Numbered from the stretch's first letter, positions 9,579 through 64,000 are shown. The stretch: DNA of 64,000 nucleotides from Ignavibacteriota bacterium (GCA_963727825.1 CAVSHO010000011.1:96001-160000); one strand, 5' to 3'. Made by a program: numbers and translations. Notes: generated from the letters alone by a model not told the origin.

Positions 9579-11417
9579 TCATTCTACTGTAACGCTCTTT
9601 GCAAGATTTCGTGGTTGGTCCACATTGCAGCCTCGCAATACAGCAATGTAATACGCCAGTAATTGCAGCGGGATAACGGAGAGTATCGGTGAGAACAAAT
9701 CAAGTGTTTGCGGAACGCAGATCAAATAATCAGCTAACTGGCTAATATTTTTCTCCTCTTCATTGACAATCGCTATCACTATTCCGCGCCGGGCTTTTAC
9801 TTCTTGAATATTGCTCATAATCTTTTCGTATGTTCTGTCGTGCGGAGCGATAAACACAACCGGCATTTTCTCGTCAATTAAAGCAATGGGTCCGTGTTTC
9901 ATTTCTGCAGCTGGGTACCCTTCTGCGTGAATATAAGAGATCTCCTTTAATTTTAGCGCGCCCTCGAGTGCAACGGGGAAATTATATCCTCTGCCAAGAT
10001 AAAGAAAGTTTTTCATTTCATTAAATTCACCTGCGATATATTCAATCTGCTTTGTATTGGAAAGGATTGTTAGCACTTTTCCCGGCAACAATTTCAATTC
10101 ATGAACGAGTGCTGCGCCTTCTTCCCGCGACATTCCTCTGCTTCGAGCTATCAAAATTGTCAAAAGCGCTAACACTGTCAATTGGGATGTGAATGCTTTT
10201 GTTGATGCAACACCTATTTCTGGCCCGGCATGAATATAAACGCCGCCATCGCTTTCTCGTGCAATAGAACTTCCTACAACATTGCATATTCCAAGAACAG
10301 TCGCCCCCTGTGCTTTCGCTTCTCGTAAAGCTGCCAGTGTATCTGCTGTTTCGCCACTTTGACTAATAAGAATCACGATATCATCTTTTGTCAGAATGGG
10401 ATTTCGATAACGGAACTCGGAAGCGTATTCCACTTCAACAGAAATATGCGCGTACTGCTCAAGCATATATTCTCCAATTAAAGCGGCATTCCACGATGTG
10501 CCACAAGCAGCAAGAATTAAACGCGGTGCACGCCCTATCTTCTCAAATACCCCCTCAAGCCCTCCAAGCTTTACATTGCCTTCCTCCTCCAGCACTCTGC
10601 CGCGCATTGCATTCTGAATCGACTCGGACTGCTCATGAATTTCTTTCAGCATGAAATGAGTGAATCCACCCTTTTCGATTTGCTCTAAATCGAATGTGAG
10701 TTCTTGAACCTCTTTCGTAATCTCAACATCGCTAAGTGTCTTTGTAACCACACTATTGGCTGTTAATTCGGCAACCTCGCCATCTCCCAGATATACAACT
10801 TGGCGAGTATGCTCTATAATTGCAGCCGCGTCAGCTGCAACAATATTTTCACCATCGCCAATCCCGAGAATAAGCGGACTTCCCATTCGAGCTGCGACTA
10901 TTCTATCCGGTTCACGAGTCGATAGAACAACGAGTCCATACGTTCCTGTTACCTCTTTCATCGCAAGGCGAACTGCATTAAAAAGATTAGGTGTCGATTT
11001 ATAGATTTCCTCGATTAAGTGCGCAATAACCTCAGTATCCGTGTCACTTACAAAGCGGTGCCCTCCTCGCAATAATTTTGTTTTAATAGCGACATAGTTT
11101 TCGATTATACCATTGTGGATTACGGCTATTTCATTCAGGCAGTCTGCATGTGGATGGGCATTAATATTATTAGGTTCACCATGTGTAGCCCAGCGAGTAT
11201 GTCCCATGCCAATATGTGCTTCTGGTTGACTGTTACCGTTATTAATCTTCTTTACAAGATCATCTACTTTCCCTGCCTGCTTTTGAATATACAAAGTTCC
11301 GTTACTACTAAGTGCTATTCCTGCTGAATCATATCCTCGGTATTCCATGCGCCTCAATCCTTCCAACAATATTGGAAGCGCATTATTTTTACCAATATAC
11401 CCAACAATACCACACAT
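9579..11417 (-). CDS. glmS: Glutamine-fructose-6-phosphate aminotransferase
   Basis: MCGIVG N-terminus, GHTRWATHG, PRNLAKSVTVE C-terminus. Confidence 0.98.
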   Translation of the reverse strand: MCGIVGYIGKNNALPILLEGLRRMEYRGYDSAGIALSSNGTLYIQKQAGKVDDLVKKINNGNSQPEAHIGMGHTRWATHGEPNNINAHPHADCLNEIAVIHNGIIENYVAIKTKLLRGGHRFVSDTDTEVIAHLIEEIYKSTPNLFNAVRLAMKEVTGTYGLVVLSTREPDRIVAARMGSPLILGIGDGENIVAADAAAIIEHTRQVVYLGDGEVAELTANSVVTKTLSDVEITKEVQELTFDLEQIEKGGFTHFMLKEIHEQSESIQNAMRGRVLEEEGNVKLGGLEGVFEKIGRAPRLILAACGTSWNAALIGEYMLEQYAHISVEVEYASEFRYRNPILTKDDIVILISQSGETADTLAALREAKAQGATVLGICNVVGSSIARESDGGVYIHAGPEIGVASTKAFTSQLTVLALLTILIARSRGMSREEGAALVHELKLLPGKVLTILSNTKQIEYIAGEFNEMKNFLYLGRGYNFPVALEGALKLKEISYIHAEGYPAAEMKHGPIALIDEKMPVVFIAPHDRTYEKIMSNIQEVKARRGIVIAIVNEEEKNISQLADYLICVPQTLDLFSPILSVIPLQLLAYYIAVLRGCNVDQPRNLAKSVTVE

Positions 11418-32438: not shown

Positions 32439-32476
32439 GTCAATTCCTAAATCAGTTAATAAATTAATTATTTCTG

Positions 32477-32550
32477 TGCGCCCGAGGCGATTCGAACGCC
32501 TGGCCTACAGCTCCGGAGGCTGTCGCTCTATCCAGCTGAGCTACGGGCGC
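32477..32550 (-). tRNA. tRNA-Arg(CCG), intact copy at the distal end of integrated element 1
   Basis: Cloverleaf, ACAGC-CT-CCG-GA-GCTGT anticodon arm. Confidence 0.96.
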
Positions 32551-33099
32551 AAGTTAAAATCCGTTATTTTCTACATTCGCCTTGTTCGAGTTGAGTGAAG
32601 TTTCGTTTTTATTTCACTCTGCAAGTGCTTAAAAAAGTACTCAATCTGCCACGAATAAAAAACGCCGAGCGAAACGAGGCTTCCGGTCTCAAAACACTTG
32701 GCGTTCTACTCTTTCGAGTAAATTTCTTTTTGTTATCTTCGGAAGCATGTTTCTTTAAGTTCGATATTAATATACGAAAAGAGGGAGGAGAATACAAGAG
32801 GGTCTAATTGAGGCAATTGGACTCAGATAATTTCAAAAACTTACCTTTTTGTAACAATTCCTGATTAGAAAATTTCTTAAAACTTAGTTTTCCTCTTTTG
32901 TTTTCAATACTTTTTCAATTTTGTTGCTGCTCAAAATATTTTTTTGTTTTAGCTGTCAAACGCTATTATATGGCTCCCTTTTAGATACTTCTCTGCTGTT
33001 TTCGTACTGTTTTTTGTGATTTTTCGTACTTTTTTTTCACTTTTTCGTACTTTTTTTTCAATGATAATCCATACTCTTTGTTCTCCATTCCTTATTAGG

Positions 33100-33260
33100 A
33101 ACTTTGACATTGACATTGCCTAAGGGAAAACGTGTCTAAGTCAAAGTGGTTAAGGAAAAAAGAGAGAGATAGACAAGAATTGTGTACCTATCTACTATCT
33201 TACTTTGACATTGACATCTTTCTGTATAGGGATTGTCAAAGTGTCGAAGTGTCAAAGTGA
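33100..33260. repeat. Iteron-like repeats (ACTTTGACA/TGTCAAAGT), putative origin of element 1
   Basis: actttgacattgacat at ~33101 and ~33202; gtcaaagtg at ~33140, 33235, 33251; directly downstream of the helicase gene. Confidence 0.65.
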
Positions 33261-34596
33261 GTAATAGCCATTTTTCGTTTTTTTCAATATTCCAGTATCG
33301 TTAGCTTTCTTTAACAATCGGTCAATTGTGCGTTCATTTGTACTCTAATGGCTTGCATCGCTCCTGAATTTCCTTTCGTGAAAGCTCAGTTGCATCACCA
33401 AAGATGCTCTTAAAATCAATGCTTTCTTGTGCTGTCTGTGTTTCCATTGCAATATGTTCTCCTTCGTCTGTTTCACCTTCATCCTTGAACCACAGATTTT
33501 CTGGGTCAAGCGAAAGCAATCTACACTTTCTCATATCATCCGATATATGTCTTCCTTTTAGAGGTTTGATAATCCTTTTTCCCTCATTGGATGACGAACG
33601 TCTGATTTGTAATGTAGTGTCTGCGCTACCACCAAAAACATTGGAGCCTCTCATCTGGTCATTGTGCATACGTTGATATTGTGAACCTTTCTTGGTGTGA
33701 TGAACAATCAACACAGCAAGCCCGTATCTATCCCGTAGAGTCATGAATTGCCTCATCAATGCTTTCATCTGGGAACTGTCATTCTCATTTTTGTTGTCAT
33801 AGGTAAAGTAGAGGCAATCTACCACAATCAAGCAGGGTTTTTCTTGTTGGCAGGTCTCATTCAAGGTCTCCCAGCAATTATCAAGTGCAGGTACTTCTTT
33901 AGGAATAATTATGTTTGAAATATCGCCAAGAGCTGGGAGTCTATCGACCATCTTTTGCAATCTCCGTGCAAAATCAGGGAAAGACAACTCATTATTTAAA
34001 AACAATACTTTGCCATGCTTTTCAATATCGTATGAAAGCCATTGCTTAGCACCTACCGCAATAGAGAGAGCAAGATTCATTGCAAGCAAGCTTTTTCCAC
34101 AACCTTCTTCACCCATCAAGAAATTTACTGACATGTCAGAAATAAGATTTTTAATAAGGAACGATTCTTTTGGTATTTCCATCATGGCAATATCCAGAGC
34201 AGTAAAATTCTCGAATTGGAAACACTGATTGTCTTTTGAGTAGGAAGAATTCAAGAGAGTCGTATTTTTTTCTTCTGATTCAATAGCAATCGGCTTATGA
34301 TTCATCAATCTAATAGCCGCCTCCCTGAACCCTCCATTCAAGGGGACAGCGGTATATGTAATATCATTAATCACGCTTGTTTGCTCTGGAAGATGTTCCA
34401 AGCATGCTTTAATGTCTAAAAGTGTGCTTGGTTTCTTCATTTCATCGTTCAAAGATTCAAACAGTTTTCTGTATTCCGGTAATTCAAAAGCATCACTGTT
34501 AAACCCTTCAGGCAATTCTTCAAATGTAGAGGGCATAAGTAGTAAGGTTGCCAAAACCTGCCGTTCTGCCATTTCTCTCCGTTCCATCACACTCAT
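33252..34596 (-). CDS. RecA/RepA-type AAA_25 helicase; last ~28 codons in another frame after an extra A near 33337
   Basis: Walker A GEEGCGKS, Walker B LIVVD, VHHTKK, RGS; removing one A extends the ORF with NERTIDRLLKKA...GYYSL. Confidence 0.85.
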
Positions 34597-35009
34597 TTGT
34601 GTACCTCAAACAAATCACCTTGACTGTGTAGTTGTTTCTCATAGTCCAAAGATTTCTTTTCCCCCCATAGGTCGAATGGAAGAAATACTTGGGTATCACC
34701 TGACTTTTCATATGTGAACACTTTCCCATAATTAAGGAGATACATTTTTGTTGTGAAGAGTTTCTGACCGCAATACTCGACACAAATCCATTTAAAATCG
34801 AAGCGTTGAAGCAATTCAAGATTCACACCAAGAGAATTGGTCTTCCGGTGCAAGTGTTTCTCCTTTCGTTTACAAAGGAATGTTCCTTCTCCAGCTTTGT
34901 CTAACTTGCCAACATAACGAGTCTCGAATGGTAAACGAAGTTCCACCGTCCAAATGCTCGATAATTTTGTTGGACTCAGGAAAATATTTTGTATATTGAA
35001 TTGTAGCAT
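34593..35009 (-). CDS. Hypothetical protein of element 1
   Basis: Overlaps the helicase start, RBS upstream. Confidence 0.65.
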   Translation of the reverse strand: MLQFNIQNIFLSPTKLSSIWTVELRLPFETRYVGKLDKAGEGTFLCKRKEKHLHRKTNSLGVNLELLQRFDFKWICVEYCGQKLFTTKMYLLNYGKVFTYEKSGDTQVFLPFDLWGEKKSLDYEKQLHSQGDLFEVHK

Positions 35010-37325: not shown

Positions 37326-38528
37326 CTATCTCAACAAAATCAGTTTTTTCGTTTCTGTAAATGAACAAGCTTGCAGACGATAGAAGTAGATACCACTCGA
37401 CATATTTGCAGCATTCCATTGACGCGAATAACTTCCTGCCGACATTTCTTCTGAGACGATAGTTGCAATTTCTCTTCCCATAATATCAAACACCTTCAAC
37501 GAGACAAAAGATTTTGATGGAAGATTAAATGAAATAGTTGTTGTAGGATTAAACGGGTTTGGATAGTTCTGGTCAAGACTGAAATGTGTCGGTAAGTCGG
37601 TGGAGAACCTCTCTACTGAGGTCATCTCTAACAACGGTCGTCTCCAAACGCCGAATAAATCAGTCCCAGCAAAGAGATTCGTGCCGCTTACGACAAGAGA
37701 CATGACACCATTGTAAGTAAGTCCTTGAGACTCCCAATTCCAGCTTGTGCCGTTATTAGTCGAAAGAAAGACGGCGTCGCCACCACAAGTCCCAGCAAAT
37801 AGATTTGTACCGGAGACAGCAAAAGCAGTGACAGGAAGAAGTTCCAATCTAAAACCGTTATTGACCGCAGTCCAGCTTGTGCCGTTGTTGGAAGAACGAT
37901 ACACACCACCATCGGTTCCTGCAAAGATATACGTGCTGGAGTTGGCAAGAACACGGACAGTCAAATTATTCAAACCAGTATTAACCGCAGTCCAACTCGT
38001 TCCGTTGTTAGTGGAAAGAAAGACGCCACCATTATTAGTCCCTGCAAAGAGATTCGTGCCGCTTACGGCAAGAGCATAGACAGTAGCATTAATTGTTCCG
38101 ACTTTAGTCCAGCTTGTGCCGTTGTTGGTGGAAAGGAAGACACCGCTACCTGCAGCAAAGAAATTTGAACCGGAAACGGCAAAACTCTGAACTCCATAAC
38201 CGTTTGGAATCCCATTGTTCACAGCGTTCCAACTTGTGCCATTGTTAGTGGAAAGAAAGACGCCACCGCCACCAGTCGCAGCAAAGAGTTTCGTGTCAAT
38301 AACGGCAAAAGCAAAAACGTTCGTTAATCCATCATTAATCCAGCTTGTACCGTTGTTGGTGGAAAGAAAGACGCCGTCGCCATAAGTCCCAGCAAATAGA
38401 TTTGTACCGGAGACGGCAAAAGCAGTGACATAAGTATTCGTGGAGACATGAATCCATTGGGAAAACGAAATATTCGGATTGATAAAGATAGCAAGTAGTA
38501 ACCAATAATGTCTTATTGAATTTTTCAT
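37326..38528 (-). CDS. T9SS-secreted BNR/Asp-box repeat protein
   Basis: Signal peptide, repeated GVFLSTNNGTSW, C-terminal QNYPNPFNP sorting domain. Confidence 0.9.
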   Translation of the reverse strand: MKNSIRHYWLLLAIFINPNISFSQWIHVSTNTYVTAFAVSGTNLFAGTYGDGVFLSTNNGTSWINDGLTNVFAFAVIDTKLFAATGGGGVFLSTNNGTSWNAVNNGIPNGYGVQSFAVSGSNFFAAGSGVFLSTNNGTSWTKVGTINATVYALAVSGTNLFAGTNNGGVFLSTNNGTSWTAVNTGLNNLTVRVLANSSTYIFAGTDGGVYRSSNNGTSWTAVNNGFRLELLPVTAFAVSGTNLFAGTCGGDAVFLSTNNGTSWNWESQGLTYNGVMSLVVSGTNLFAGTDLFGVWRRPLLEMTSVERFSTDLPTHFSLDQNYPNPFNPTTTISFNLPSKSFVSLKVFDIMGREIATIVSEEMSAGSYSRQWNAANMSSGIYFYRLQACSFTETKKLILLR

Positions 38529-38840
38529 ACGAAAGCTCCTTGCTATTATTGGTAAGAAGGCTGATAGGCATTTGTATTTTACTAAATACCAAAAATACAA
38601 GCAACTACTTTCAAGAGTGTACTTTTACAAAAAAAATATGAGTTATACACTTTCCGTATGAGGTGTATATTTATAGGCTTTACCCCTTGCTTATTAAAAT
38701 CTGGAGAGTTCTTTAACCCCTCCCCCTATTTTTTCAACTATATGCCGTTTAAAACATACCGCCTTTGGGGTTCGACGCTTTTCACTACTCACCCCAGTTA
38801 TTGCCATTATCTTTCCAAATTTGCATTAAGACTGACTTTC

Positions 38841-39927
38841 TCAGTTCATAGATACCGAAATCTTGTTCACCTCAGCATGTAGGCTCTCAGTCTGTAAATG
38901 GCTGTATATCTGAGTTGTTTTTACGTCTGAGTGTCCAAGCAAGTCTTTAATCACATATACAGAAGTACCATCCTGAGCAAGCCACGAAGCAAACGAGTGC
39001 CGGAGTGAATGAAAATGTATATCCTGATTGCTGAGGTTCGCAAGTCTCACATAGCGCTTGAACAAGTGTGTAATCCAATCGGCAAAGATTTGCTTGCCGT
39101 TCATTGTGAACACATAGCCGGAAGCATCTTTACCTTGTTTTGCTTGCAGAATGTAGAGAGCGGTATCGCTCAATGGTATTATTCTCATTCTACCGGCTTT
39201 TGTGCGAAAGGTTGGAGTGCTTTCGATGTATAGCAACTTCCGGCTGAGGTCAATACTATTCCATTTCAGGTTCACTAATTCCCCTCTACGTAGTCCGGTG
39301 CTCACAGCAAAGATAATGATTTCCTTCAACCAGCTTTCTTCAATCACACCTAACAATTTTTGAAATTCAAGTTTCGTGAGGAATGTCGGTTTATTCTCCG
39401 GTACCTTCACCAGTTGAATTTTGAATGGATTGCTTTCGAGTAGCTTCCACCTTACGGCTGTATTGAAGAAAGCCCTCAGCGTTCGGAGTTCGATATTTAC
39501 AGTTACCGGCCTCACAATTTTCTCTATCTCTGTTTTGTGTCCATCTTTAATCATTATTACCACCTTGACAGGCTTTTGTCTCTCTGTTTTGTATGCATCA
39601 AAATGCTGAGGTGTATAATTGGCAAGCGGAAAGTCTCCGATGTATTCTATAAAATTCCGGAGAGATGCCTTGTAGATTGCTACAGTGCCTTTAGAGAAGC
39701 TTCCTTCAGCATAGGCAAGGAAAGGTGCTGAGAAATTCAGATAAGAGCATATGCTTGGCTTTCTGCCTTCGTTCGTATTCATCACTTTTGAAAGTTTGAA
39801 GGAACTTGAGAGCATCGGTTTTGTATTGGCAATGAGTGGAAACCCGTTTCCTTTTCCCTTGTTCATTGAAATAGAAAAGGTAATACGTGCCATTGGAATG
39901 TTTGGAGAGGAACATCGGAAGCCCCAT
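38841..39927 (-). pseudogene. Tyrosine integrase of element 1, with a +1 frameshift near 39722
   Basis: STGLRRGEL, HFHSLRHSFASW, LGHS..TTQIY; its N-terminus (39706..39927) matches the intact paralog at 60610; the indel may be a sequencing error. Confidence 0.85.
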
Positions 39928-40005
39928 TTTCTGAGGCAGAAGGTGCTTAAATAAGTACTTACGAAGAAAAGAAATGCAGAAATTGAAATGCTTTGAAGGA
40001 AATTT

Positions 40006-40060
40006 ACGCCTGGCCTACAGCTCCGGAGGCTGTCGCTCTATCCAGCTGAGCTACGGGCGC
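40006..40060 (-). pseudogene. 5' fragment of tRNA-Arg(CCG) (att site)
   Basis: Identical to the first 55 nt of the tRNA at 32477-32550; ends at the first T of the T-loop. Confidence 0.93.
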
Positions 40061-40126
40061 AAGAATGCTGGTTCACTAATCTAATGTATTGAAGTTTTTA
40101 AAGAGATTCAAATGATAGGCAAATCC

Positions 40127-40237
40127 TGTAGTGTCTCAATTTAATATTACTGGCGATTGATGTCAGGAGTTTCCTCCTGACATCCAACAGGATCGGTCAG
40201 GACGTAAGTCCTGACCGCACGAAACTGAGACACTACC
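40127..40237. mobile_element. 111-bp MITE with (G)GTAGTGTCTCA terminal inverted repeats and two internal REP-like hairpins
   Basis: TSD gcaaatcc at 40119-40126 and 40238-40245; hairpins gatgtcagga..tcctgacatc and cggtcagga..tcctgaccg. Confidence 0.85.
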
Positions 40238-40323
40238 GCAAATCCTGTTTGTTGTCTTCGTGGATTCCTATCAGAACAATCTCTGCTATTTTGTTTCCTG
40301 ATACTCTTACAACGCATAAGAGA

Positions 40324-41791: not shown

Positions 41792-42538
41792 TTATAATCC
41801 TTTTTGTTGCCGTCTTTTTGCTTTTATTTTTACTTCTTCGGAGATTTGTACGCGAGTATCAGGCGCATTTTTAATTAGCTCAATATTTAGCTCGAATATT
41901 AATTCGTCAATGAGACGCTTTGGATTCCAACGATTAAGTGCTTTGTTAATAATAAAATTACTTAAGTCAAGCTCCGGAGATAATTTTTCTGCTATATATT
42001 CAGATAATTCTTTCTCATCGTTTGGGCTGATTTTTTGAATATTAGCGATGCGTTTTTTACACCAATCCAAAATAAATGGATTAAATATTTTACAGGGTAA
42101 TAGTAGCTCCGAGCCAACTCTTTTTGCTGCCCTCTCGAATATTTGATGTGTTTCTTCGTTTAAAAAGTTCTCATATTTGATTCTGTCTTCTATTGAATTA
42201 ATGCCTTCAAATATCGAAGAATGAATAATTGAATGTCCTACTTCTTCGGCTATCGTAAATTGAGCAGATTTGTTTGACATTATATAGTGGTTTGCATCAA
42301 TAAATATTTCTATCCGATTTTCCTTTAGATTTTTAAAACCAATCCCGTACAAACCAAACAATTGAAGATCGTCTATAATATTAATAGGAATTCGAGCGCG
42401 TTGGGATACAATTTCAATGTTTATTACGGGAACGTTTGGAAGAGTTAGCCACCCATGACTATCTAAAAAAGCTTCTGCGATCTCCCTACAATGCACATAT
42501 GTATAATTTATGGAGCGACAACTTTCAATACCGTTCAT
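41792..42538 (-). CDS. ImmA/IrrE-like metallopeptidase (DUF955)
   Basis: VPVINIE, QFTIAEEVGH (HExxH-like), FE..A...SELLLP; coupled to an XRE gene. Confidence 0.78.
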   Translation of the reverse strand: MNGIESCRSINYTYVHCREIAEAFLDSHGWLTLPNVPVINIEIVSQRARIPINIIDDLQLFGLYGIGFKNLKENRIEIFIDANHYIMSNKSAQFTIAEEVGHSIIHSSIFEGINSIEDRIKYENFLNEETHQIFERAAKRVGSELLLPCKIFNPFILDWCKKRIANIQKISPNDEKELSEYIAEKLSPELDLSNFIINKALNRWNPKRLIDELIFELNIELIKNAPDTRVQISEEVKIKAKRRQQKGL

Positions 42539-42884
42539 TTATAAATGCTGTTACCTTCCGAATCTGTTCTTCTGTCATTTTTTTATTTGCCACTGTACGT
42601 AACAAAAGCGGAATTCCCACAATGTCTTTTATGTCTTTTGCAATATCTTTAGGAAATTGTTCGTTGTCTATAGATGCTTGATCCGCTAAGTTCTTTTTTT
42701 CTTCTATAGTCGCACCTATTCCGTCATTAATCGCATTTATCAATTCCGATTTTTGCGGTGGCGGGATCGTACATCTTTCAACCCGCGAAAGATATGCAAC
42801 GTCTATATCGCTATTATTTGCAAGTTCTCTTAGTGTTATTCCCTTTTGCGTGCGCAATTCGCGCAACATCTCACCATATTTCAT
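42525..42884 (-). CDS. XRE-family HTH transcriptional regulator
   Basis: GEMLRELR..KGITLRELA....VAYLSRVER...PP. Confidence 0.9.
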   Translation of the reverse strand: MKYGEMLRELRTQKGITLRELANNSDIDVAYLSRVERCTIPPPQKSELINAINDGIGATIEEKKNLADQASIDNEQFPKDIAKDIKDIVGIPLLLRTVANKKMTEEQIRKVTAFINERY

Positions 42885-42972
42885 GGCGCCTTCTCCTCAT
42901 GAATGACCTTGTTGTAGTATTACTACAACATAGACAAAGGACGCCATATTGTCAAGAAAAATCCGAGCGTAC

Positions 42973-43473
42973 TTATTCTATCTTTTCCGTATCAACAACG
43001 GTTTTCTCAACTTCTCCACCGTTATTCTTTTTTTCTCGTTCTTTAACCTTATCTGGATAGCGTTCAGCAAGTCCATAGGCTTTTCCATCTTGAGTATCAA
43101 ACTGTACAAACTCTCTGTTTGAACCTAAATAAATAGCCATGTTTTTCAAACTATGTTTTGCTTTCCATGTAGACGGAAATTGAAAATCTCCCTTAGTCAA
43201 TCCGTCCAAGATTTCTTGAGCCGTAGAAGCCCGTCCAGTTTTGCGTAAGAATTCCTTTGTTGAGTCTAACATTGATTTACCGACGAATTCTCTTGGTGGC
43301 GGCTCATATTTACCAATACTGCTATTTGACTGCTCAACATCGATAAATTCCGGTGGTAATCCATTTAAAGCCATAAGTTGATTAATGGCTTTTTTAATTT
43401 CCACTTGACGAACGTCCAAGTTGAGTAATTCGTTGTGTAGTGAATCAATCGCTTTATCTAATTCGTTTGGCAT
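42973..43473 (-). CDS. Hypothetical protein, N-terminal coiled coil plus probable winged-helix
   Basis: ggagg RBS; FLRKTGR..TAQEILDGL..G pattern. Confidence 0.6.
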   Translation of the reverse strand: MPNELDKAIDSLHNELLNLDVRQVEIKKAINQLMALNGLPPEFIDVEQSNSSIGKYEPPPREFVGKSMLDSTKEFLRKTGRASTAQEILDGLTKGDFQFPSTWKAKHSLKNMAIYLGSNREFVQFDTQDGKAYGLAERYPDKVKEREKKNNGGEVEKTVVDTEKIE

Positions 43474-60038: not shown

Positions 60039-60477
60039 TATGTCTATATCTCCGTATTCAAAATTCATATAGATAGTATGGATTTTATCCTAATTGTAAA
60101 TATACATAACATATTAAAATCTTCCTATTAATTCTTAGACTTTTCTGAATTTGAAACGATAAAAATCAGTTTCTTGCTTCCGTTTTCATCGTTTCGTATA
60201 TTAGTACATAATTAAGTAAATAATTTTGCACCCATAGTTCGAAAATTGCCTGCGAATGCATTTTATGAGCAGAAGCAATTTTCAGAATCTCCCGCTTTTC
60301 AGGATTCCGCTTTTGAAGCGGGATTCAAAAAGCGGAACCGCCGGTATTTGGCGGGACTTAATAATATTGTATTAGTTTGCACCCATAGCTTCCAAATCGG
60401 CCTGCGAGTGCAACGAGCAGCAGCCGATTTGAGAATCCCGTTGAACGAAGTGATAACGGGATCTTAATTTGATCTTT

Positions 60478-60532
60478 GCACCCATAGCTCAATTGGATAG
60501 AGCGGCAGCCTACGGAGCTGTAGGTTGGGGGT
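60478..60532 (+). pseudogene. 5' fragment of tRNA-Arg(ACG) (att site of element 2)
   Basis: gcacccatagctcaattggatagagc-ggcagc-ct-ACG-ga-gctgt-aggttgggggt, then no TTCGA or acceptor strand. Confidence 0.9.
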
Positions 60533-60609
60533 AAAAAGCTTTCAAAACATTTCAATTTCTACATTTCCTTCCTTCGTGGGTACTAATTTGGTGACCTTCT
60601 GCCTCAGAA

Positions 60610-61692
60610 ATGGGGTTTCCAATGTTCCTCTCCAAACATTCCAACGGTACCTATTATCTGTATTATTCCAACGAACAAGGCAAGAGAAAAAAGGTATCTA
60701 CTCATTGCCAATATAAAACCGATGCGCTCCAGTTTCTGCAATCGTTCAAAAGTGATGAACACGAACGGAGACAAAAAGCAAAGCATAAACTACTTTCAGA
60801 ACTCCAGAATGATTTTCTTCCTTATGCAGATGCTAACTTTAGCAAGGGAACGGTAGATATTTACAAAGCAGCACTAAAGAACTTTGTTTGCATTGTCGGT
60901 GATTTACCACTTTCATCATACACTCCTCAGCACTTCGATACTTACAAAACAGAGAGACAAAAACCTGTCAAGGTGGTAACGGTCAAAGATGGACATAAAG
61001 CAGAGACAGAGAAGATTGTAAAGCCAGTAACTGTAAACATCGAACTCCGGACGTTGAGGGCTTTCTTCAACACAGCTGTAAGGTGGAGACTACTCGAAAG
61101 CAATCCATTCAAAATTCAACTCGTAAAGATACCGGAGAATAAGCCAACATTCCTCACAAAGGAAGAATTTCAAAAGCTTCTTAATGTGATTGAAGAACAT
61201 TGGTTGAAGGAAATCATTATCTTTGCAGTAAGCACCGGATTGCGTAGAGGCGAATTAGTGAACCTAAAATGGAATTGTATAGACCTCAGCCGAAAGTTGC
61301 TGTATATCGAAAGCACTCCCACGTTTCGCACGAAGTCCGGTAAAATGAGAATAATACCGTTGAACGATACAGCTCTCTACATATTGCAAGCAAAGCAAGG
61401 AAAAGATACTTCTGAATATGTTTTTTCGATGAACGGCAAGCAAATCTTTGCCGATTGGATTACGCACTTGTTCAAGCGGTATGTGAGACTTGCGAACCTC
61501 AGCAATCAGGATATACATTTTCATTCACTCCGGCACTCGTTTGCTTCTTGGCTTGCTCAGGACGGTACTTCTGTTTATGTGATTAAAGACTTGCTCGGAC
61601 ATTCAGACGTAAAAACAACTCAGATATATAGCCATTTACAACCTGAGAGTTTACATAAAGAAGTGAATAGGATTTCGATACTTATGAATTGA
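60610..61692 (+). CDS. Tyrosine integrase, close paralog of 38841..39927
   Basis: Intact R-HxxR-H-Y catalytic motifs; long identical stretches shared with the element 1 integrase. Confidence 0.95.
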   Translation: MGFPMFLSKHSNGTYYLYYSNEQGKRKKVSTHCQYKTDALQFLQSFKSDEHERRQKAKHKLLSELQNDFLPYADANFSKGTVDIYKAALKNFVCIVGDLPLSSYTPQHFDTYKTERQKPVKVVTVKDGHKAETEKIVKPVTVNIELRTLRAFFNTAVRWRLLESNPFKIQLVKIPENKPTFLTKEEFQKLLNVIEEHWLKEIIIFAVSTGLRRGELVNLKWNCIDLSRKLLYIESTPTFRTKSGKMRIIPLNDTALYILQAKQGKDTSEYVFSMNGKQIFADWITHLFKRYVRLANLSNQDIHFHSLRHSFASWLAQDGTSVYVIKDLLGHSDVKTTQIYSHLQPESLHKEVNRISILMN

Positions 61693-61732
61693 ATGTGTTT
61701 TGAATAATAAATAAAAGAGCGTCGGTAGTGTC

Positions 61733-61882
61733 TTAATTTGGATGTGATGGAGGTGGAAAAATATCATCAATTAATGGTCTAAGCACATATCCAGCGGCAA
61801 GACCAACAATAAGTAATTGTCCACCCGATGGAAGAAAAAAGAATATAATAACGAGAATAATAAATATTACCATTTTTGCCAT
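61733..61882 (-). CDS. Small membrane protein
   Basis: ggag RBS, MAKMVIFIILVIIFF hydrophobic ORF. Confidence 0.5.
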   Translation of the reverse strand: MAKMVIFIILVIIFFFLPSGGQLLIVGLAAGYVLRPLIDDIFPPPSHPN

Positions 61883-62151
61883 TTTAATTTCTCCATAGAC
61901 ACTATTATGCGGCTTTCTTATTTTATCGTTTGACAACCAGCAACTCAAACTGACGCAGACCACATTGAAGGTACTGACTGCTGTTGGCAATGGCAATGAA
62001 TAAATATCATCAATCATAACACAGATGGCTCAATACGACTAGGAACAATTCAATTGTTTGTTGGGATTATTGGGATTTTTAAGAAAAACAACATCCATTA
62101 ATACCATCAAGATGGTAGTATCAGATTAGGTACAATGCGAGTGTTTTATCT

Positions 62152-62763
62152 TTACCCAAAATTATTTCTTAATATTTTAATAAAATATCCAAGAAAGTTA
62201 CCAGATAGCTTTCTTTCTTTCCATTGACTAAGTCCTGCGTTAAATGCTTCTTTTATTTTACCTTCTTCATACTTATCAATTACGTTAGAGAAGAATTTTC
62301 TAAAAGCGAATTCATCAAATTCTACTGCTTCTATTTTTAATATTTCCACCATTTGATCGATAATAACATTATTTCCATTATTAACATTATTGTTTGTCAC
62401 CGTTTTGTTCTCCGTCTGCTCTCCGTTCTGCTCTCCACCAATTTGATACCGTTTCCAATTTCGTATTGATATTATTGTGGTTACGTTATCAATTTTGGTA
62501 TCCACCATTTGCCGTGTTTCGAGATACGTAAGAAATTTTCTCACTGTTTTGAAATCCCATTTCCACCTATCCGCGAGAGATAATTGAGAATAGCATAATT
62601 CACCTGGCGTAATATGGATTTCATTACCGCGAATAATTACCATGTGCTCCCTATGGCTTGCCAATAATAGTAAATCTATCCAGGCTTGCAATCGTGTAAA
62701 ACGTTCGCTGAAATAAAGATCGTTCTCCATTATCTGGCGATGTAATTTTATATATCCTTGCAT
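62152..62763 (-). CDS. Phage-type replication initiator / replisome organiser
   Basis: GYIKLHR..AWIDLLLLA..LADRWKW..TIISI.NW..YQ; internal ctccgt(t)ctg repeats at ~62408-62437. Confidence 0.8.
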   Translation of the reverse strand: MQGYIKLHRQIMENDLYFSERFTRLQAWIDLLLLASHREHMVIIRGNEIHITPGELCYSQLSLADRWKWDFKTVRKFLTYLETRQMVDTKIDNVTTIISIRNWKRYQIGGEQNGEQTENKTVTNNNVNNGNNVIIDQMVEILKIEAVEFDEFAFRKFFSNVIDKYEEGKIKEAFNAGLSQWKERKLSGNFLGYFIKILRNNFG

Positions 62764-62767
62764 AAAA

Positions 62768-64000
62768 TCAGACGAGGTATTGTTTAGGTGACCAAGATTT
62801 AGATTGATAATCTCGAATTTCGGTTTCTTTCAAAGTTAAGGTTTCTGGGTTAAATAATAGACCAACTTTGTTATTTGTCAAATTCAAATTACGTCCCCAT
62901 TCTACAAATAGCTCGATATAAGATGGTTCTTCTTCAATCGGCTTCCATAAAAATATTCCGCAATCAGCATCATTAAAAAGTCTACCTGTGTCTCTGATGT
63001 CGGATGGAGAGGGTTTCCTATCAATCCTCATTCCTATTTGTTTACTTAAAACAGCCGCGATAAGAATTATTGGAATAGATAAATCAGTGGCTAGACCCTT
63101 CAACCTGCTAACAAAGGCATTAATCTCGTTTACTCTGTCCTTATTTGCGACCTCAATTAATTGCAAATAATCAATGATGAGTAATTTTATTTTTTTCTCA
63201 TGAAACATCTTTTGTGCAATAATAAATACTTTCTCTGGATTTGCTGAACCATCCCGAATAATCAAATCTTTCCCTTTTGATGTTTCTTGGAACTGGAGTA
63301 AACGGGTCAGACGATCCATAGGGTTCTGACCACTATGTACTCCTGCATATCGTTTTGCAATGTCAACGGCACGCATTTCCATTGAAATAATTCCAACAGA
63401 ATGTCCCTGAGTTGAGTTATAATATCCAATTTGGTTAGATAAAAAAGATTTGCCAATTTTGGCTTCAGCTGCAATACAATATAGACTACCCTGTTCAAAG
63501 CCATGAATGATTTTATCCAGCTTTGATATACCAGATGGAAGTCTTACAATTTCACCTGTAATCTCTTTCTCTGTTTCGTTGATCGCTTCGATAGTAGCAT
63601 CATCAAGGGTTATATATCCTTTCAGATCATGATCTTTCACGGCAAAGGAAATTAATTCTTGTGTTGCTAATTCAATTATAGTGCTAATTTCTTTCCCATC
63701 ATTTATCTCTTTATTGATATGGAGAAGTAATGTCCTCAATTGTGTTTTTCGAGCTTCCTCTTGAAGAAAACGACAATTAGCTGATAAGCTATTATGAACA
63801 CCTTCCTTTGTAATAAGTGTCGAGAGTTCAACGCTTCGTAGAACTAGATACTCCAGAACCTGTCGTTCATCAATAAATTCAGGATATATTTTTAAGTAGT
63901 GAGACAACATCAAACTATTCTGTTGTAAATAATTTTGTACTTCAATAAGATTAACTTCTTTTTGTAGTTCTACTAAGGCTTTGCACACTCCAAAGAGAAT
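62768..64000 (-). CDS. DnaB-like replicative helicase (5' end probably outside the window)
   Basis: SGISKLD, AKIGKS, SMEM, IIDYLQL, P.PSDIRDTG...DAD. Confidence 0.88.
   Translation of the reverse strand: MLFGVCKALVELQKEVNLIEVQNYLQQNSLMLSHYLKIYPEFIDERQVLEYLVLRSVELSTLITKEGVHNSLSANCRFLQEEARKTQLRTLLLHINKEINDGKEISTIIELATQELISFAVKDHDLKGYITLDDATIEAINETEKEITGEIVRLPSGISKLDKIIHGFEQGSLYCIAAEAKIGKSFLSNQIGYYNSTQGHSVGIISMEMRAVDIAKRYAGVHSGQNPMDRLTRLLQFQETSKGKDLIIRDGSANPEKVFIIAQKMFHEKKIKLLIIDYLQLIEVANKDRVNEINAFVSRLKGLATDLSIPIILIAAVLSKQIGMRIDRKPSPSDIRDTGRLFNDADCGIFLWKPIEEEPSYIELFVEWGRNLNLTNNKVGLLFNPETLTLKETEIRDYQSKSWSPKQYLV

Follow-up and report, generated by a model that had tools for sequence, protein, structure and literature searches.

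How do two closely related integrase genes come to lie 20.4 kb apart in an Ignavibacteriota genome, each directly behind the 5′ part of a different arginine tRNA gene, and at which point of those genes were the strands exchanged? We analysed a stretch of 64,000 nucleotides (GCA_963727825.1, CAVSHO010000011.1:96001-160000; hereafter the window) and consider it likely that the two genes mark two integrated elements of one integrase lineage, inserted with reversed (5′) geometry in the genes for tRNA-Arg(CCG) and tRNA-Arg(ACG); the best explanation of these elements is that they are small, integrative and self-replicating. They were compared with a family sample of 76 loci (given L numbers below) with at most 57% identity, drawn from metagenome-assembled genomes of Ignavibacteriota and Bacteroidota that do not include the window's own genome. 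The features of element 1, from its integrase end, are as follows.

40006..40060, minus strand: putative attL, the 5′ fragment (nt 1-54, standard numbering) of tRNA-Arg(CCG), from a partial Rfam tRNA match
39928..40005, minus strand: leader and proposed P′ arm, with the motif AGTACTTATTTAAGCAC at 39943-39959, from alignment to the element 2 leader
38841..39927, minus strand: int1, an integrase gene with one frameshift near 39715-39725, from translation
37326..38600, minus strand: cargo, a protein with BNR/Sortilin repeats and a C-terminal sorting domain for type IX secretion (Pfam Por_Secre_tail, 2.2e-11)
33334..35009, minus strand: replication module, a 138-aa ORF overlapping a 420-aa AAA_25/DnaB-N helicase (Pfam, PHROGs)
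32999..33264, no strand assigned: iterons, external to the helicase ORF, from a repeat search
32653..32751, minus strand: structured RNA-like motif near the right end (covariance model R1)
32625..32641, minus strand: AGTACTTTTTTAAGCAC, a second copy of the 17-nt motif and proposed P arm, 74 nt away on the 5′ side of the intact tRNA
32476..32550, minus strand: putative attR, the intact tRNA-Arg(CCG) (ARAGORN; Rfam, 67.3 bits)

Element 1 is complete at about 7.5 kb (40060 to 32496, minus strand), and in it the geometry predicted from the first-pass annotation, with a tRNA fragment, an integrase and an intact tRNA at the far end, can be seen in full. The fragment comprises the first 55 nt of tRNA-Arg(CCG), ends in CCAGGCGT before AAA, scores 34.0 bits as a partial Rfam tRNA match (gathering cut-off 29), and is identical at 55/55 positions to the start of the intact gene (32496-32550). 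This repeat, together with a fragment upstream of the integrase gene and an intact tRNA at the far end, argues that the element supplies the 5′ part of the rebuilt gene. The 17-nt motif AGTACTTNTTTAAGCAC has two copies in the window, which mark the two ends of element 1: one is in the integrase leader and the other precedes the intact tRNA by 74 nt (0 expected from 100 shuffles); because it is confined to these two places, the DNA on the 5′ side of the rebuilt tRNA can be assigned to the element, as is also indicated by the RNA motif, which lies at a like place in L001, L002 and L021. Base composition did not distinguish the elements from their flanks. Int1, read in two frames, is 83% identical to Int2 over 69 N-terminal residues and 87% over 293 C-terminal residues, and its ORF matches Pfam PF00589 (E 2.5e-35); the frameshift, seen in one assembly, could be a sequencing error.

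The helicase ORF (33334-34596) matches Pfam AAA_25 (E 7e-30), not DnaB_C, and additionally the DnaB N-terminal domain, while the adjoining repeats consist of three 21-bp units at 32999-33060 and of TGTCAAAG/TTGACA repeats at 33101-33264. The same pair of small ORF and helicase recurs in L001, L002 and L021, where the gene order is that of element 1 and the RNA motif precedes the element-side tRNA segment by about 100 nt; a protein like the BNR/Sortilin-repeat cargo occupies the corresponding place in L002. The RNA motif shows a GNRA hairpin, a terminator-like stem and a possible pseudoknot, and model R1, with three seed sequences, also matched L002 (65.8 bits, E 3e-11), whereas Rfam returned nothing for it within 32551-33340 and tRNA matches alone over the whole window. 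Neither capsid nor conjugation genes were detected in the elements with Pfam and PHROGs. Element 2 begins at 60478 and continues past the window's last base (64000), so that 3.5 kb of it are visible.

60478..60532, plus strand: putative attL, the 5′ fragment (nt 1-54, standard numbering) of tRNA-Arg(ACG), from sequence and a partial Rfam tRNA match
60533..60609, plus strand: leader of 77 nt and proposed P′ arm, with the motif GGGTACTAATTTGGTGAC at 60578-60595, from alignment to the element 1 leader
60610..61692, plus strand: int2, an intact tyrosine integrase of 360 aa (Pfam PF00589, E 3.6e-38)
61733..62017, minus strand: small ORF of 94 aa, in no family
62152..62763, minus strand: DnaD-like helicase loader/replisome organiser (PHROG 2514, 3.2e-25)
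62768..64000, minus strand: DnaB-like replicative helicase, N-terminus past the window and ORF open at its end (Pfam DnaB_C, E 2.5e-35)

The fragment opening element 2 covers the first 55 nt of an ACG-anticodon tRNA and ends in TTGGGGGT before AAA (partial Rfam tRNA match of 32.1 bits, gathering cut-off 29); ARAGORN called neither this fragment nor the CCG one. Int2 scores 131.5 bits against the PF00589 catalytic-domain profile (cut-off 27.1) and 2.6e-75 against a PHROG integrase, and has 2261 relatives at E ≤ 0.001. Its residues R212, K242, H305, R308, H331 and Y340, which we take to be the catalytic Arg, Lys, His-x-x-Arg, His and Tyr of the tyrosine recombinase family, are invariant in an alignment of 21 sequences and have counterparts in Int1. 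Solved structures gave only generic Xer and Int relatives, and the best integrase match in the phage database was just 28.5% identical, leaving the lineage without a known phage relative. The arm-like motif GGGTACTAATTTGGTGAC has one copy in the window, which covers element 2 in part. The 94-aa ORF had no match in Pfam, PHROGs or NCBIfam. The loader ORF matches Pfam Phage_rep_org_N at 1.3e-3, under that family's cut-off, and contains internal tandem repeats (TRF; 62364-62391 and 62400-62436), and the helicase reaches 122.5 bits against DnaB_C (cut-off 27) and stays under the NCBIfam equivalog cut-offs. Upstream of the ACG fragment, short units at 60228 and 60379 repeat the tRNA's first 10-12 nt at their start; Rfam found nothing besides tRNA in 60228-60477, and neither a promoter role nor an origin in older insertions could be supported for these units.

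The first-pass annotation had described closely related integrases in two tRNA-Arg isoacceptors, fragments stopping at the same nucleotide, homologous leaders of about 75 nt, differing T-stems, and different replication modules, AAA_25 with external iterons in one element and DnaB with an internally repetitive protein in the other; all of these sequence-level statements were found as described. Both fragments stop at the first T of the T-loop, which is linear nt 55 and, by our own cloverleaf parsing, T54 in standard numbering. In a single pairwise nucleotide alignment of the two elements (A1), identity was 45/55 between the tRNA fragments, 63/78 aligned positions between the leaders (T54 to ATG) and 896/1082 nt between the integrase genes, compared with 34/96 aligned positions upstream and 16/38 after the stop codon, which we take as background. 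Homology thus extends from the tRNA start through the integrase stop codon only, and beyond the integrases no protein or DNA similarity was found between the elements; element 2 also departs from the element 1 type in gene order, its replication genes lying on the opposite strand. Four of the ten fragment differences fall in the 5′ arm of the T-stem (linear nt 48-53), while one of seven anticodon-loop positions and one of ten stem positions differ. In the integrase tree int1 and int2 are sisters with support 100. The first-pass annotation further proposed that the intact Int2 could act on element 1 in trans and that the 20.4 kb between the paralogues could invert.

Within the family sample, 14/76 loci carry a 5′ tRNA fragment immediately upstream of the integrase gene on the same strand (type A) and 28/76 look standard, a tRNA directly preceding the integrase gene; the 5′ layout alternates with three others, and given the well-supported branches among 64 integrases the 5′ state must have changed at least 7 times. 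Among the ten type A loci having at least 9 kb of downstream sequence, a cognate intact tRNA lies 7-10 kb downstream in five (L001, L013, L019, L021, L043) and is absent within about 10 kb downstream in the other five (L008, L022, L026, L041, L056); complete related elements span 7-10 kb. Some of these loci are irregular: L019, first counted as a clean 5′-fragment case, is ambiguous, with 460 nt before its intact tRNA-Lys that resemble the left-hand flank of the L002 tRNA; the L013 fragment is scrambled, its 5′ end being unrelated and 27 nt being inserted; and L022 has an intact tRNA-Asp upstream of the fragment and a complex repeat. Repeats resembling the arm motifs of element 1 were seen, as sequence repeats, in L001, L021 and L043.

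Where the strands cross is a separate question, on which the family is informative. Judged from sequence, strand exchange in the window's elements seems somewhat more likely to take place in the 7-nt anticodon loop, flanked by the stem arms, and T54 is probably the inherited end of tRNA homology in attP and not the crossover. The sole part common to 34 of the 35 mapped identity blocks is tRNA nt 32-38, which is the anticodon loop, and the outermost block boundaries coincide exactly with its first and last positions, nt 32 and nt 38. The ends of type A blocks lie at nt 38 (4), 39 (2), 40 (2), 41, 42, in the variable arm (1), and at 54 (3), 56 and 58, none before nt 38; reverse-strand 3′ blocks start at 32, 31, 31, 29, 29 and 28 or earlier, none after 32; and standard 3′ blocks start at 4, 9, 9, 24, 24 and 26. 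The one exception, L073, is a repeat from the T-arm to the 3′ end, beside a degraded integrase, that lacks the anticodon loop. In L043 a polymorphism at nt 27 maps the exchange, indirectly, to between nt 28 and 38, and the related elements L040 and L042, both in one tRNA-Thr, end at 41 and 38. The integrases of L042 and L043 are 93% identical in DNA, and their targets, tRNA-Thr(CGT) and tRNA-Ser(GCT), have a stem arm and most of the loop in common. Both window blocks likewise contain the anticodon loop with symmetric stem arms, and because loop and stem differ by one base each between the two Arg tRNAs, little retargeting of the core would be needed.

The first-pass annotation had instead placed integration at T54, with the differing T-stem as att core, and given the loop shared by 34 of 35 blocks this is probably wrong. 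A crossover at or just before T54, in the 5′ arm of the T-stem or at the first T-loop base, would make the fragment left of T54 host DNA and would mean that core specificity changed between the two T-stems; we regard it as unlikely, if far from negligible. Both window blocks stop at this one nucleotide and match their own targets over 55 nt, the four differences at nt 48-53 included, the simplest reading of which is a crossover at the block's 3′ edge, and a loop crossover has to assume an extra, unobserved step of homogenisation. T54 is also the block end in L013, with C56 in L001 and about A58 in L015, and a T-loop/junction site class appears in the Islander table (PMC4383910). However, the T-loop differs between fragment and intact gene (TAAATTT versus TTCGAAT) and so cannot be the identical overlap, the putative overlaps differ at 3/7 positions although the integrases are 87% identical, and we read no inverted repeat flanking T54 in the reconstructed attP. 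Moreover, the clade closest to the window integrases has block ends at 42, 54, 54, 56 and 76, and with ends at 56 in L001 and 42 in its sister locus L003, a crossover of this type must shift within one well-supported clade. The block ends of the family fall into two groups, 38-42 and 54-58, and could also represent two crossover sublocations rather than one.

In the reversed geometry, attP would carry the 5′ part of the tRNA (nt 1-54) and not the 3′ part. Its layout probably begins with the structured RNA motif and its terminator, followed by a first arm motif, a spacer of about 74 nt, tRNA nt 1-54, a second spacer of about 46 nt, the second arm motif and the integrase gene. After integration the host's own 5′ part would be left as a dead fragment beside the integrase gene (attL), and the working tRNA at attR would be rebuilt from element-supplied nt 1 to x and the host 3′ part. 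With a crossover in the anticodon loop, we infer that one change in the 7-nt overlap sufficed for the switch between the Arg isoacceptors; homologous exchange between the direct repeats, a process unable to shift the block's end, may afterwards have fitted the rest of the 54-nt block to its new target. Since the 5′ part of the rebuilt tRNA comes from the element, its transcription must start from element DNA, where the promoter would be expected. Sigma-70 promoter and terminator scans around both tRNA copies performed no better than shuffles, no promoter was identifiable for the rebuilt tRNA, and no common motif was apparent by eye when the upstream regions of all the window's tRNAs were compared. 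Read-through from an operon of the element was also considered, but the RNA motif, about 95 nt upstream, has a terminator-like stem that makes this less likely.

For element 2, this scheme predicts a rebuilt tRNA-Arg(ACG) at the far end. ARAGORN found no intact tRNA-Arg(ACG) within the 64 kb window, as would be expected if the fragment were a dead end, with this tRNA-Arg(ACG) destroyed by the insertion or by a later deletion and another copy serving the cell, and the lack of a cognate intact tRNA within 10 kb at half of the ten type A loci, as well as the divergent gene order and opposite-strand replication genes of element 2, would fit such an outcome. We nevertheless consider it quite improbable, because a rebuilt gene is present in element 1 and five related loci, int2 is intact behind a leader with an arm-like motif, as for a functional element, and the visible 3.5 kb fall short of the 7-10 kb of complete relatives. 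It is extremely improbable that the fragments are tRNA pseudogenes made by local duplication beside integrases that are mere neighbours, with no site-specific integration: the units at 60228 and 60379, with their copies of the tRNA's first 10-12 nt, do indicate that short duplications of the tRNA start happen here, but the 55/55 repeat encloses an integrase gene and a replication module, the arm motif sits at the two ends of element 1 only, and other tRNAs are juxtaposed likewise in 14/76 related loci.

More tentatively, the integration of both elements by the 5′ route may belong to a broader pattern, in which the attP of the whole family is built on an anticodon-loop crossover with a freely variable tRNA segment. 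This segment could comprise nearly the entire gene, as in L002, or no more than nt 1-38 or nt 32-76, and with such variation around the loop, lineages would flip repeatedly between restoring the 3′ and the 5′ part. Targets could hop between tRNAs with a common anticodon arm, as perhaps between Arg-CCG and Arg-ACG in the window and between Thr-CGT and Ser-GCT in L042 and L043. Where the 5′ part is restored, the element would take over transcription of an essential host tRNA, and the conserved, possibly pseudoknotted RNA motif with its terminator, about 100 nt upstream, might insulate or regulate that transcription.

Among known systems, pSAM2-like and P4-like elements are integrative plasmids or phage satellites with an integrase and a helicase or primase module. 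Element 1 resembles them in layout (about 7.5 kb, integrase gene at one end, helicase with iterons, few cargo genes), and the low identity of the best phage-database integrase match, 28.5%, sets the window's elements apart. Standard tRNA-gene islands and prophages reportedly carry a 3′ fragment and use an anticodon-loop attachment subsite (Williams, 2002). Like these, the window's elements have a tyrosine integrase adjoining att, a block that holds the anticodon loop with symmetric stem arms, and, in element 1, arm-like repeats on either side of the core; unlike them, the block spans the tRNA 5′ end to T54 and not the crossover to the 3′ end. A footnote to the Islander table (PMC4383910) names the anticodon-loop (A) class of attachment subsite. 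For a system from another domain of life, 5′-distal recombination is described as considerably rarer than 3′-distal; the integrase types differ, and the likeness lies in the rare 5′ orientation.

The kind of integration seen here is already known as a minority, and the window's elements are a further example of it; a Mesorhizobium loti element with a 5′ tDNA fragment layout is said to have been reported by Zhao and Williams in 2002. Table 1 of the Islander description (PMC4383910) counts 159 islands with a 5′ tDNA fragment among 3919, making 5′ replacement a minority mode at about 4% of catalogued islands, and the configuration filter outlined there takes an intact tDNA with an upstream cognate 5′ fragment in one orientation, the two enclosing an integrase gene. 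In element 1 the fragment, integrase gene and intact tRNA are all on the minus strand with the integrase gene between, and a 5′ fragment upstream of a rebuilt gene in one orientation implies, for the Islander 5′ type as here, that the element supplies the 5′ part. Such replacement makes the host depend on element DNA for transcribing the rebuilt tRNA. The window and its relatives form a compact natural series, one integrase lineage in both orientations on many tRNAs, with two pairs of near-identical integrases on different tRNAs, which should be useful for studying how tRNA-targeting integrases switch target, for asking whether the block end is as reliable a guide to the crossover as island-mapping software assumes, and for picking integrases whose target is predictable from the anticodon arm. 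Like the Islander 5′-fragment islands, the present elements are tyrosine-integrase elements in tRNA genes, and in element 1 the displaced 5′ part lies upstream of the rebuilt gene. They differ in the host group, which for the related loci consists of Ignavibacteriota and Bacteroidota metagenome-assembled genomes, in the occurrence of two related elements on two isoacceptors within one 64-kb stretch, and in a 5′ layout that is frequent in this family (14/76) and alternates with three other layouts.

ARAGORN located five tRNA genes in the window, among them tRNA-Arg(CCG), and did not find tRNA-Arg(ACG) within these 64 kb. Two 5' tRNA fragments, each comprising the first 55 nt of an arginine tRNA and scoring as a partial match at the Rfam tRNA gathering score, lie beside two related tyrosine integrase genes. 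The features of the element at tRNA-Arg(CCG) (element 1) and of the element at tRNA-Arg(ACG) that runs past the window end (element 2) are as follows:

32476-32550 (-): intact tRNA-Arg(CCG)
32625-32641 (-): second copy of a 17-nt motif, 74 nt upstream of the intact tRNA-Arg(CCG)
37326-38600 (-): cargo gene just after int1, BNR/Sortilin-repeat protein with a type IX secretion sorting domain
39927-38841 (-): int1, tyrosine integrase, reading away from the CCG fragment
39943-39959 (-): first copy of the 17-nt motif, inside the int1 leader
40006-40060 (-): tRNA-Arg(CCG) 5' fragment, ending in CCAGGCGT before AAA, the same break as in the ACG fragment
60478-60532 (+): 5' fragment with anticodon ACG, ending after the first T of the T-loop, in TTGGGGGT before AAA
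60610-61692 (+): int2, tyrosine integrase, reading away from the ACG fragment

The CCG fragment is identical to the start of the intact tRNA-Arg(CCG) at 55/55 positions and lies on the same strand, 7.5 kb away. The leader separating each fragment from its integrase gene measures 77-78 nt. In DNA alignments of element 1 with element 2, identical positions numbered 45/55 in the tRNA part, 63/78 in the leader and 896/1082 between int1 and int2, while the upstream flanks (34/96) and the DNA past the stop codons (16/38) were taken as background; homology is therefore limited to the stretch from the tRNA start through the integrase stop. The Int2 protein is intact (Pfam PF00589, E 3.6e-38), and its conserved catalytic positions are invariant across the integrase family alignment. 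One single-base frameshift interrupts int1 near 39715-39725. Since Int1 is 83% identical to Int2 over the 69 residues before this point and 87% over the 293 residues after it, the break is either recent or an assembly error.

Outside the integrase regions the two elements are unrelated. All genes of element 1 lie on the strand of its tRNA and include, besides the cargo gene, several ORFs without a family and a 138-aa ORF overlapping an AAA_25/DnaB-N helicase, together with three 21-bp iterons and TGTCAAAG repeats. The genes following int2 lie on the strand opposite to its tRNA and comprise a small ORF, a DnaD-like loader with internal tandem repeats and a DnaB-like helicase crossing the window end. 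The common end of both fragments at the first T-loop T, the homologous leaders and the differing replication modules had all been described in the first-pass annotation; each of its sequence-level statements was borne out, and the feature is real.

Several structured segments border the two fragments. Directly upstream of the ACG fragment are two tandem units (60228-60378 and 60379-60477, +), both opening with TTTGCACCCATAG, 13 nt identical to those spanning the tRNA start; they form long hairpins (fold z-scores -5.5 and -3.25) with a 9-bp stem carrying four compensated pair differences (GAAAAUUGC/GCAAUUUUC versus CAAAUCGGC/GCCGAUUUG) around a conserved loop, and gave no Rfam hit and no further copy in the window or in the 76 related loci. 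Between a TPR gene and the CCG fragment lies a 141-nt multi-hairpin structure (40110-40250, -), in which a long outer stem surrounds two perfect hairpins (MFE -64.4 kcal/mol, z -8.7); nothing in Rfam matched it at the gathering threshold. Left of the TPR gene, a run of small ORFs (41792-43473, -), one with a weak IrrE/Peptidase_M78 match below the cut-off (E 6.5e-4), may be a leftover of another mobile or regulatory module.

The duplicated tRNA piece of element 1 is the 5' part and its fragment stands upstream of the intact gene, so the attP of element 1 must carry tRNA nt 1-54, and the working tRNA at 32476-32550 is a composite, its 5' side supplied by the element and its 3' side by the host. 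The 17-nt motif AGTACTTNTTTAAGCAC occurs exactly twice in 64 kb, with 0 copies expected by chance; being common to the int1 leader and the region upstream of the intact tRNA, it assigns this upstream DNA to the element. The two copies look like putative arm sites flanking the core. A related GGGTACTAATTTGGTGAC-like motif occupies the same relative place in the element 2 leader (60578-60595), with its partner expected past the window end, and by our own count the arm motifs of the two elements match at 12/17 positions.

To the same element-side tRNA flank belongs a conserved RNA-like motif of about 96 nt, separated by about 95-100 nt from the element-side tRNA segment downstream, in the window (32653-32751, -) and in three related loci (L001 8400-8498, L021 16936-17031, L002 16826-16923). 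It contains a GNRA-capped hairpin (ACTC-GAAA-GAGT; in L002 ATCC-GCAA-GGAT), a terminator-like stem with compensatory changes (AACGCCAAG/CTTGGCGTT versus AAATCCCTT/AAGGGATTT) and a possible pseudoknot pairing CTTCC with GGAAG. The L002 copy, which was outside the seed, was found by the covariance model at 65.8 bits, and Rfam held no match to the motif.

Relatives of Int2 at E <= 0.001 numbered 2261, the closest of them being proteins of 73-83% identity. A profile of 21 sequences (Int2 and 20 relatives) was used to scan genome contigs; 602 stretches matched, 584 were confirmed, and the best 80 of these yielded 76 distinct loci outside the window's own genome, nearly all in Ignavibacteriota or Bacteroidota metagenome-assembled genomes, with integrases 29-57% identical to Int2. 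Loci were typed by the content of the ~450 nt upstream of the integrase gene, using ARAGORN, a search for exact repeats, and both a BLAST comparison with the recovered tRNAs and an HMM built from them. The window's layout, a 5' fragment on the integrase strand (type A), was present in 14/76 loci; 28/76 carried a tRNA on the integrase strand in the standard layout (type B), 12/76 an opposite-strand 3' fragment (type C, one tentative) and 3/76 an opposite-strand intact tRNA (type D), while in 19/76 neither tRNA nor fragment was recognised upstream of the gene. Ten of the 14 type A loci had at least 9 kb of downstream sequence; a cognate intact tRNA was present 7-10 kb downstream in five (L001, L013, L019, L021, L043) and was not seen in the downstream sequence of the other five (L008, L022, L026, L041, L056). 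Element 1 shares with L001, L002 and L021 the gene order integrase, cargo, small ORF plus helicase, tRNA segment, and a similar BNR/Sortilin-repeat cargo protein (~410-424 aa, type IX sorting domain) follows the integrase in both element 1 and L002 (11808-13037).

In a tree of 64 integrases, from which 14 loci were left out because of internal stops or an aligned length below 270 residues, the two integrases of the window pair as sisters (support 100) within a clade (support 99) that also holds the type A loci L001 and L003 and the type B locus L002. Counting well-supported branches alone, no fewer than 7 state changes are required by the 15 type A rows, so the layout flips often within this integrase family.

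Individual type A loci are more complicated. L019 is ambiguous: a tRNA-Lys 5' fragment (9675-9713) adjoins one integrase, and the intact tRNA-Lys 10 kb downstream is followed by leader sequence of an L002-type element (L019 19672-20250, L002 9374-9951). This one tRNA gene may thus have elements on both sides, but its upstream stretch of 460 nt is likewise similar to the flank in L002. In L022 (9235-9890), within 600 nt of an intact tRNA-Asp there follows a 3' tRNA-Asp fragment whose T arm holds a hairpin insert; next comes the 5' fragment beside the integrase gene, and a 66-nt repeat from this region recurs 2.8 kb downstream. The tRNA-Met fragment of L013 (255-325), beside the integrase gene, is scrambled: its acceptor/D-arm start is unrelated, the D loop holds an inserted GC-rich hairpin of 27 nt, and only nt 23-55 match the intact gene.

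To locate the crossover, we modelled attP as a tRNA segment from nt a to nt b followed by the integrase gene, with the crossover at any x inside the segment; type A results if a = 1 and b < 76, whereas b = 76 gives type B. What the identity block reveals is a and b, not x. Block boundaries, numbered by our own cloverleaf parsing, are given below.

Boundaries of the mapped identity blocks
Type A, 16 blocks including the window's two, b: 38 (L019, L026, L042, L043); 39 (L022, L056); 40 (L008, L041); 41 (L040); 42 (L003); variable arm (L021); 54 (both window elements, L013); 56 (L001); ~58 (L015)
Type B, 7 blocks with a visible far end, a: 4 (L002); 9 (L009, L017); 24 (L038, L054); 26 (L029); T arm (L073)
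Type C, 11 blocks, a: 32 (L075); 31 (L031, L065); 29 (L048, L066); 28 (L037); <=27 (others)
Type D, 1 block, b: 39 (L033)

The whole anticodon loop lies inside 34/35 mapped blocks; the loop (nt 32-38) is the sole segment common to the 34, and the extreme boundaries fall exactly at its edges. In L043, nt 27 is A in the fragment, pairing with T43 of the intact gene, and G in the intact gene itself; this polymorphism places the exchange between nt 28 and 38. The related elements L040 and L042, in the same tRNA-Thr, have block ends at 41 and 38. L042 (7518-7660) and L043 (5197-5344), whose integrase regions are 93% identical in DNA, are a second natural case of the window's situation: they occupy tRNA-Thr(CGT) and tRNA-Ser(GCT), which have a stem arm and most of the loop in common, both 5' fragments stop at nt 38, the last anticodon-loop base, and identical element sequence follows directly. 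Between the window's two arginine tRNAs, the loop differs in the first anticodon base alone and the stem in one position. Because of the shared loop, the boundary positions and these comparisons, we favour, with moderate confidence, strand exchange in the anticodon loop for the window's elements, and read T54, the first T-loop base, as the inherited end of tRNA homology in the attP of their common ancestor.

The first-pass annotation had identified the elements and their geometry correctly, and had placed the crossover at T54, where it probably does not lie. Each window block does equal its own target right to T54, even over the T-stem arm, in which the two tRNAs differ, and block ends among the loci fall into two groups, 38-42 and 54-58, which could represent two crossover sublocations. 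Against T54, fragment and gene do not have the T-loop in common, the putative overlaps would disagree at 3/7 positions, and the block ends of the sister loci L001 and L003 lie at 56 and 42. With exchange in the anticodon loop, fragment nt 39-54 would be element DNA and must have been adapted to the new target. If excision proceeded by homologous recombination between the 55-bp direct repeats in place of site-specific recombination, host sequence would enter attP anywhere within the block, and nt 39-54 could thus be adapted with the block end unmoved. A crossover at T54 is unlikely in our judgement yet stays live, because the full match requires this presumed adaptation step under anticodon-loop exchange and because the ends form two groups.

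Judged from sequence, Int2 could plausibly act on element 1 in trans, given the near-identical cores, the 83% identity of the 69 N-terminal residues and the 12/17 agreement of the arm motifs. The 20.4 kb separating the divergent paralogues are unlikely, in our judgement, to invert: inversion would require either that two attL sites recombine despite a mismatched overlap, or homologous recombination over 1.2 kb at 83% DNA identity.

The arrangement has a counterpart in the Islander catalogue, whose algorithm explicitly admits islands in which a 5' fragment precedes the tDNA and whose description separates anticodon (A) from T-loop/junction (J) subsites (PMC4383910). Its Table 1 gives 159 islands with a 5' fragment versus 3760 with a 3' fragment (PMC4383910); this layout is thus an established but infrequent one, of which the window's elements are new examples.
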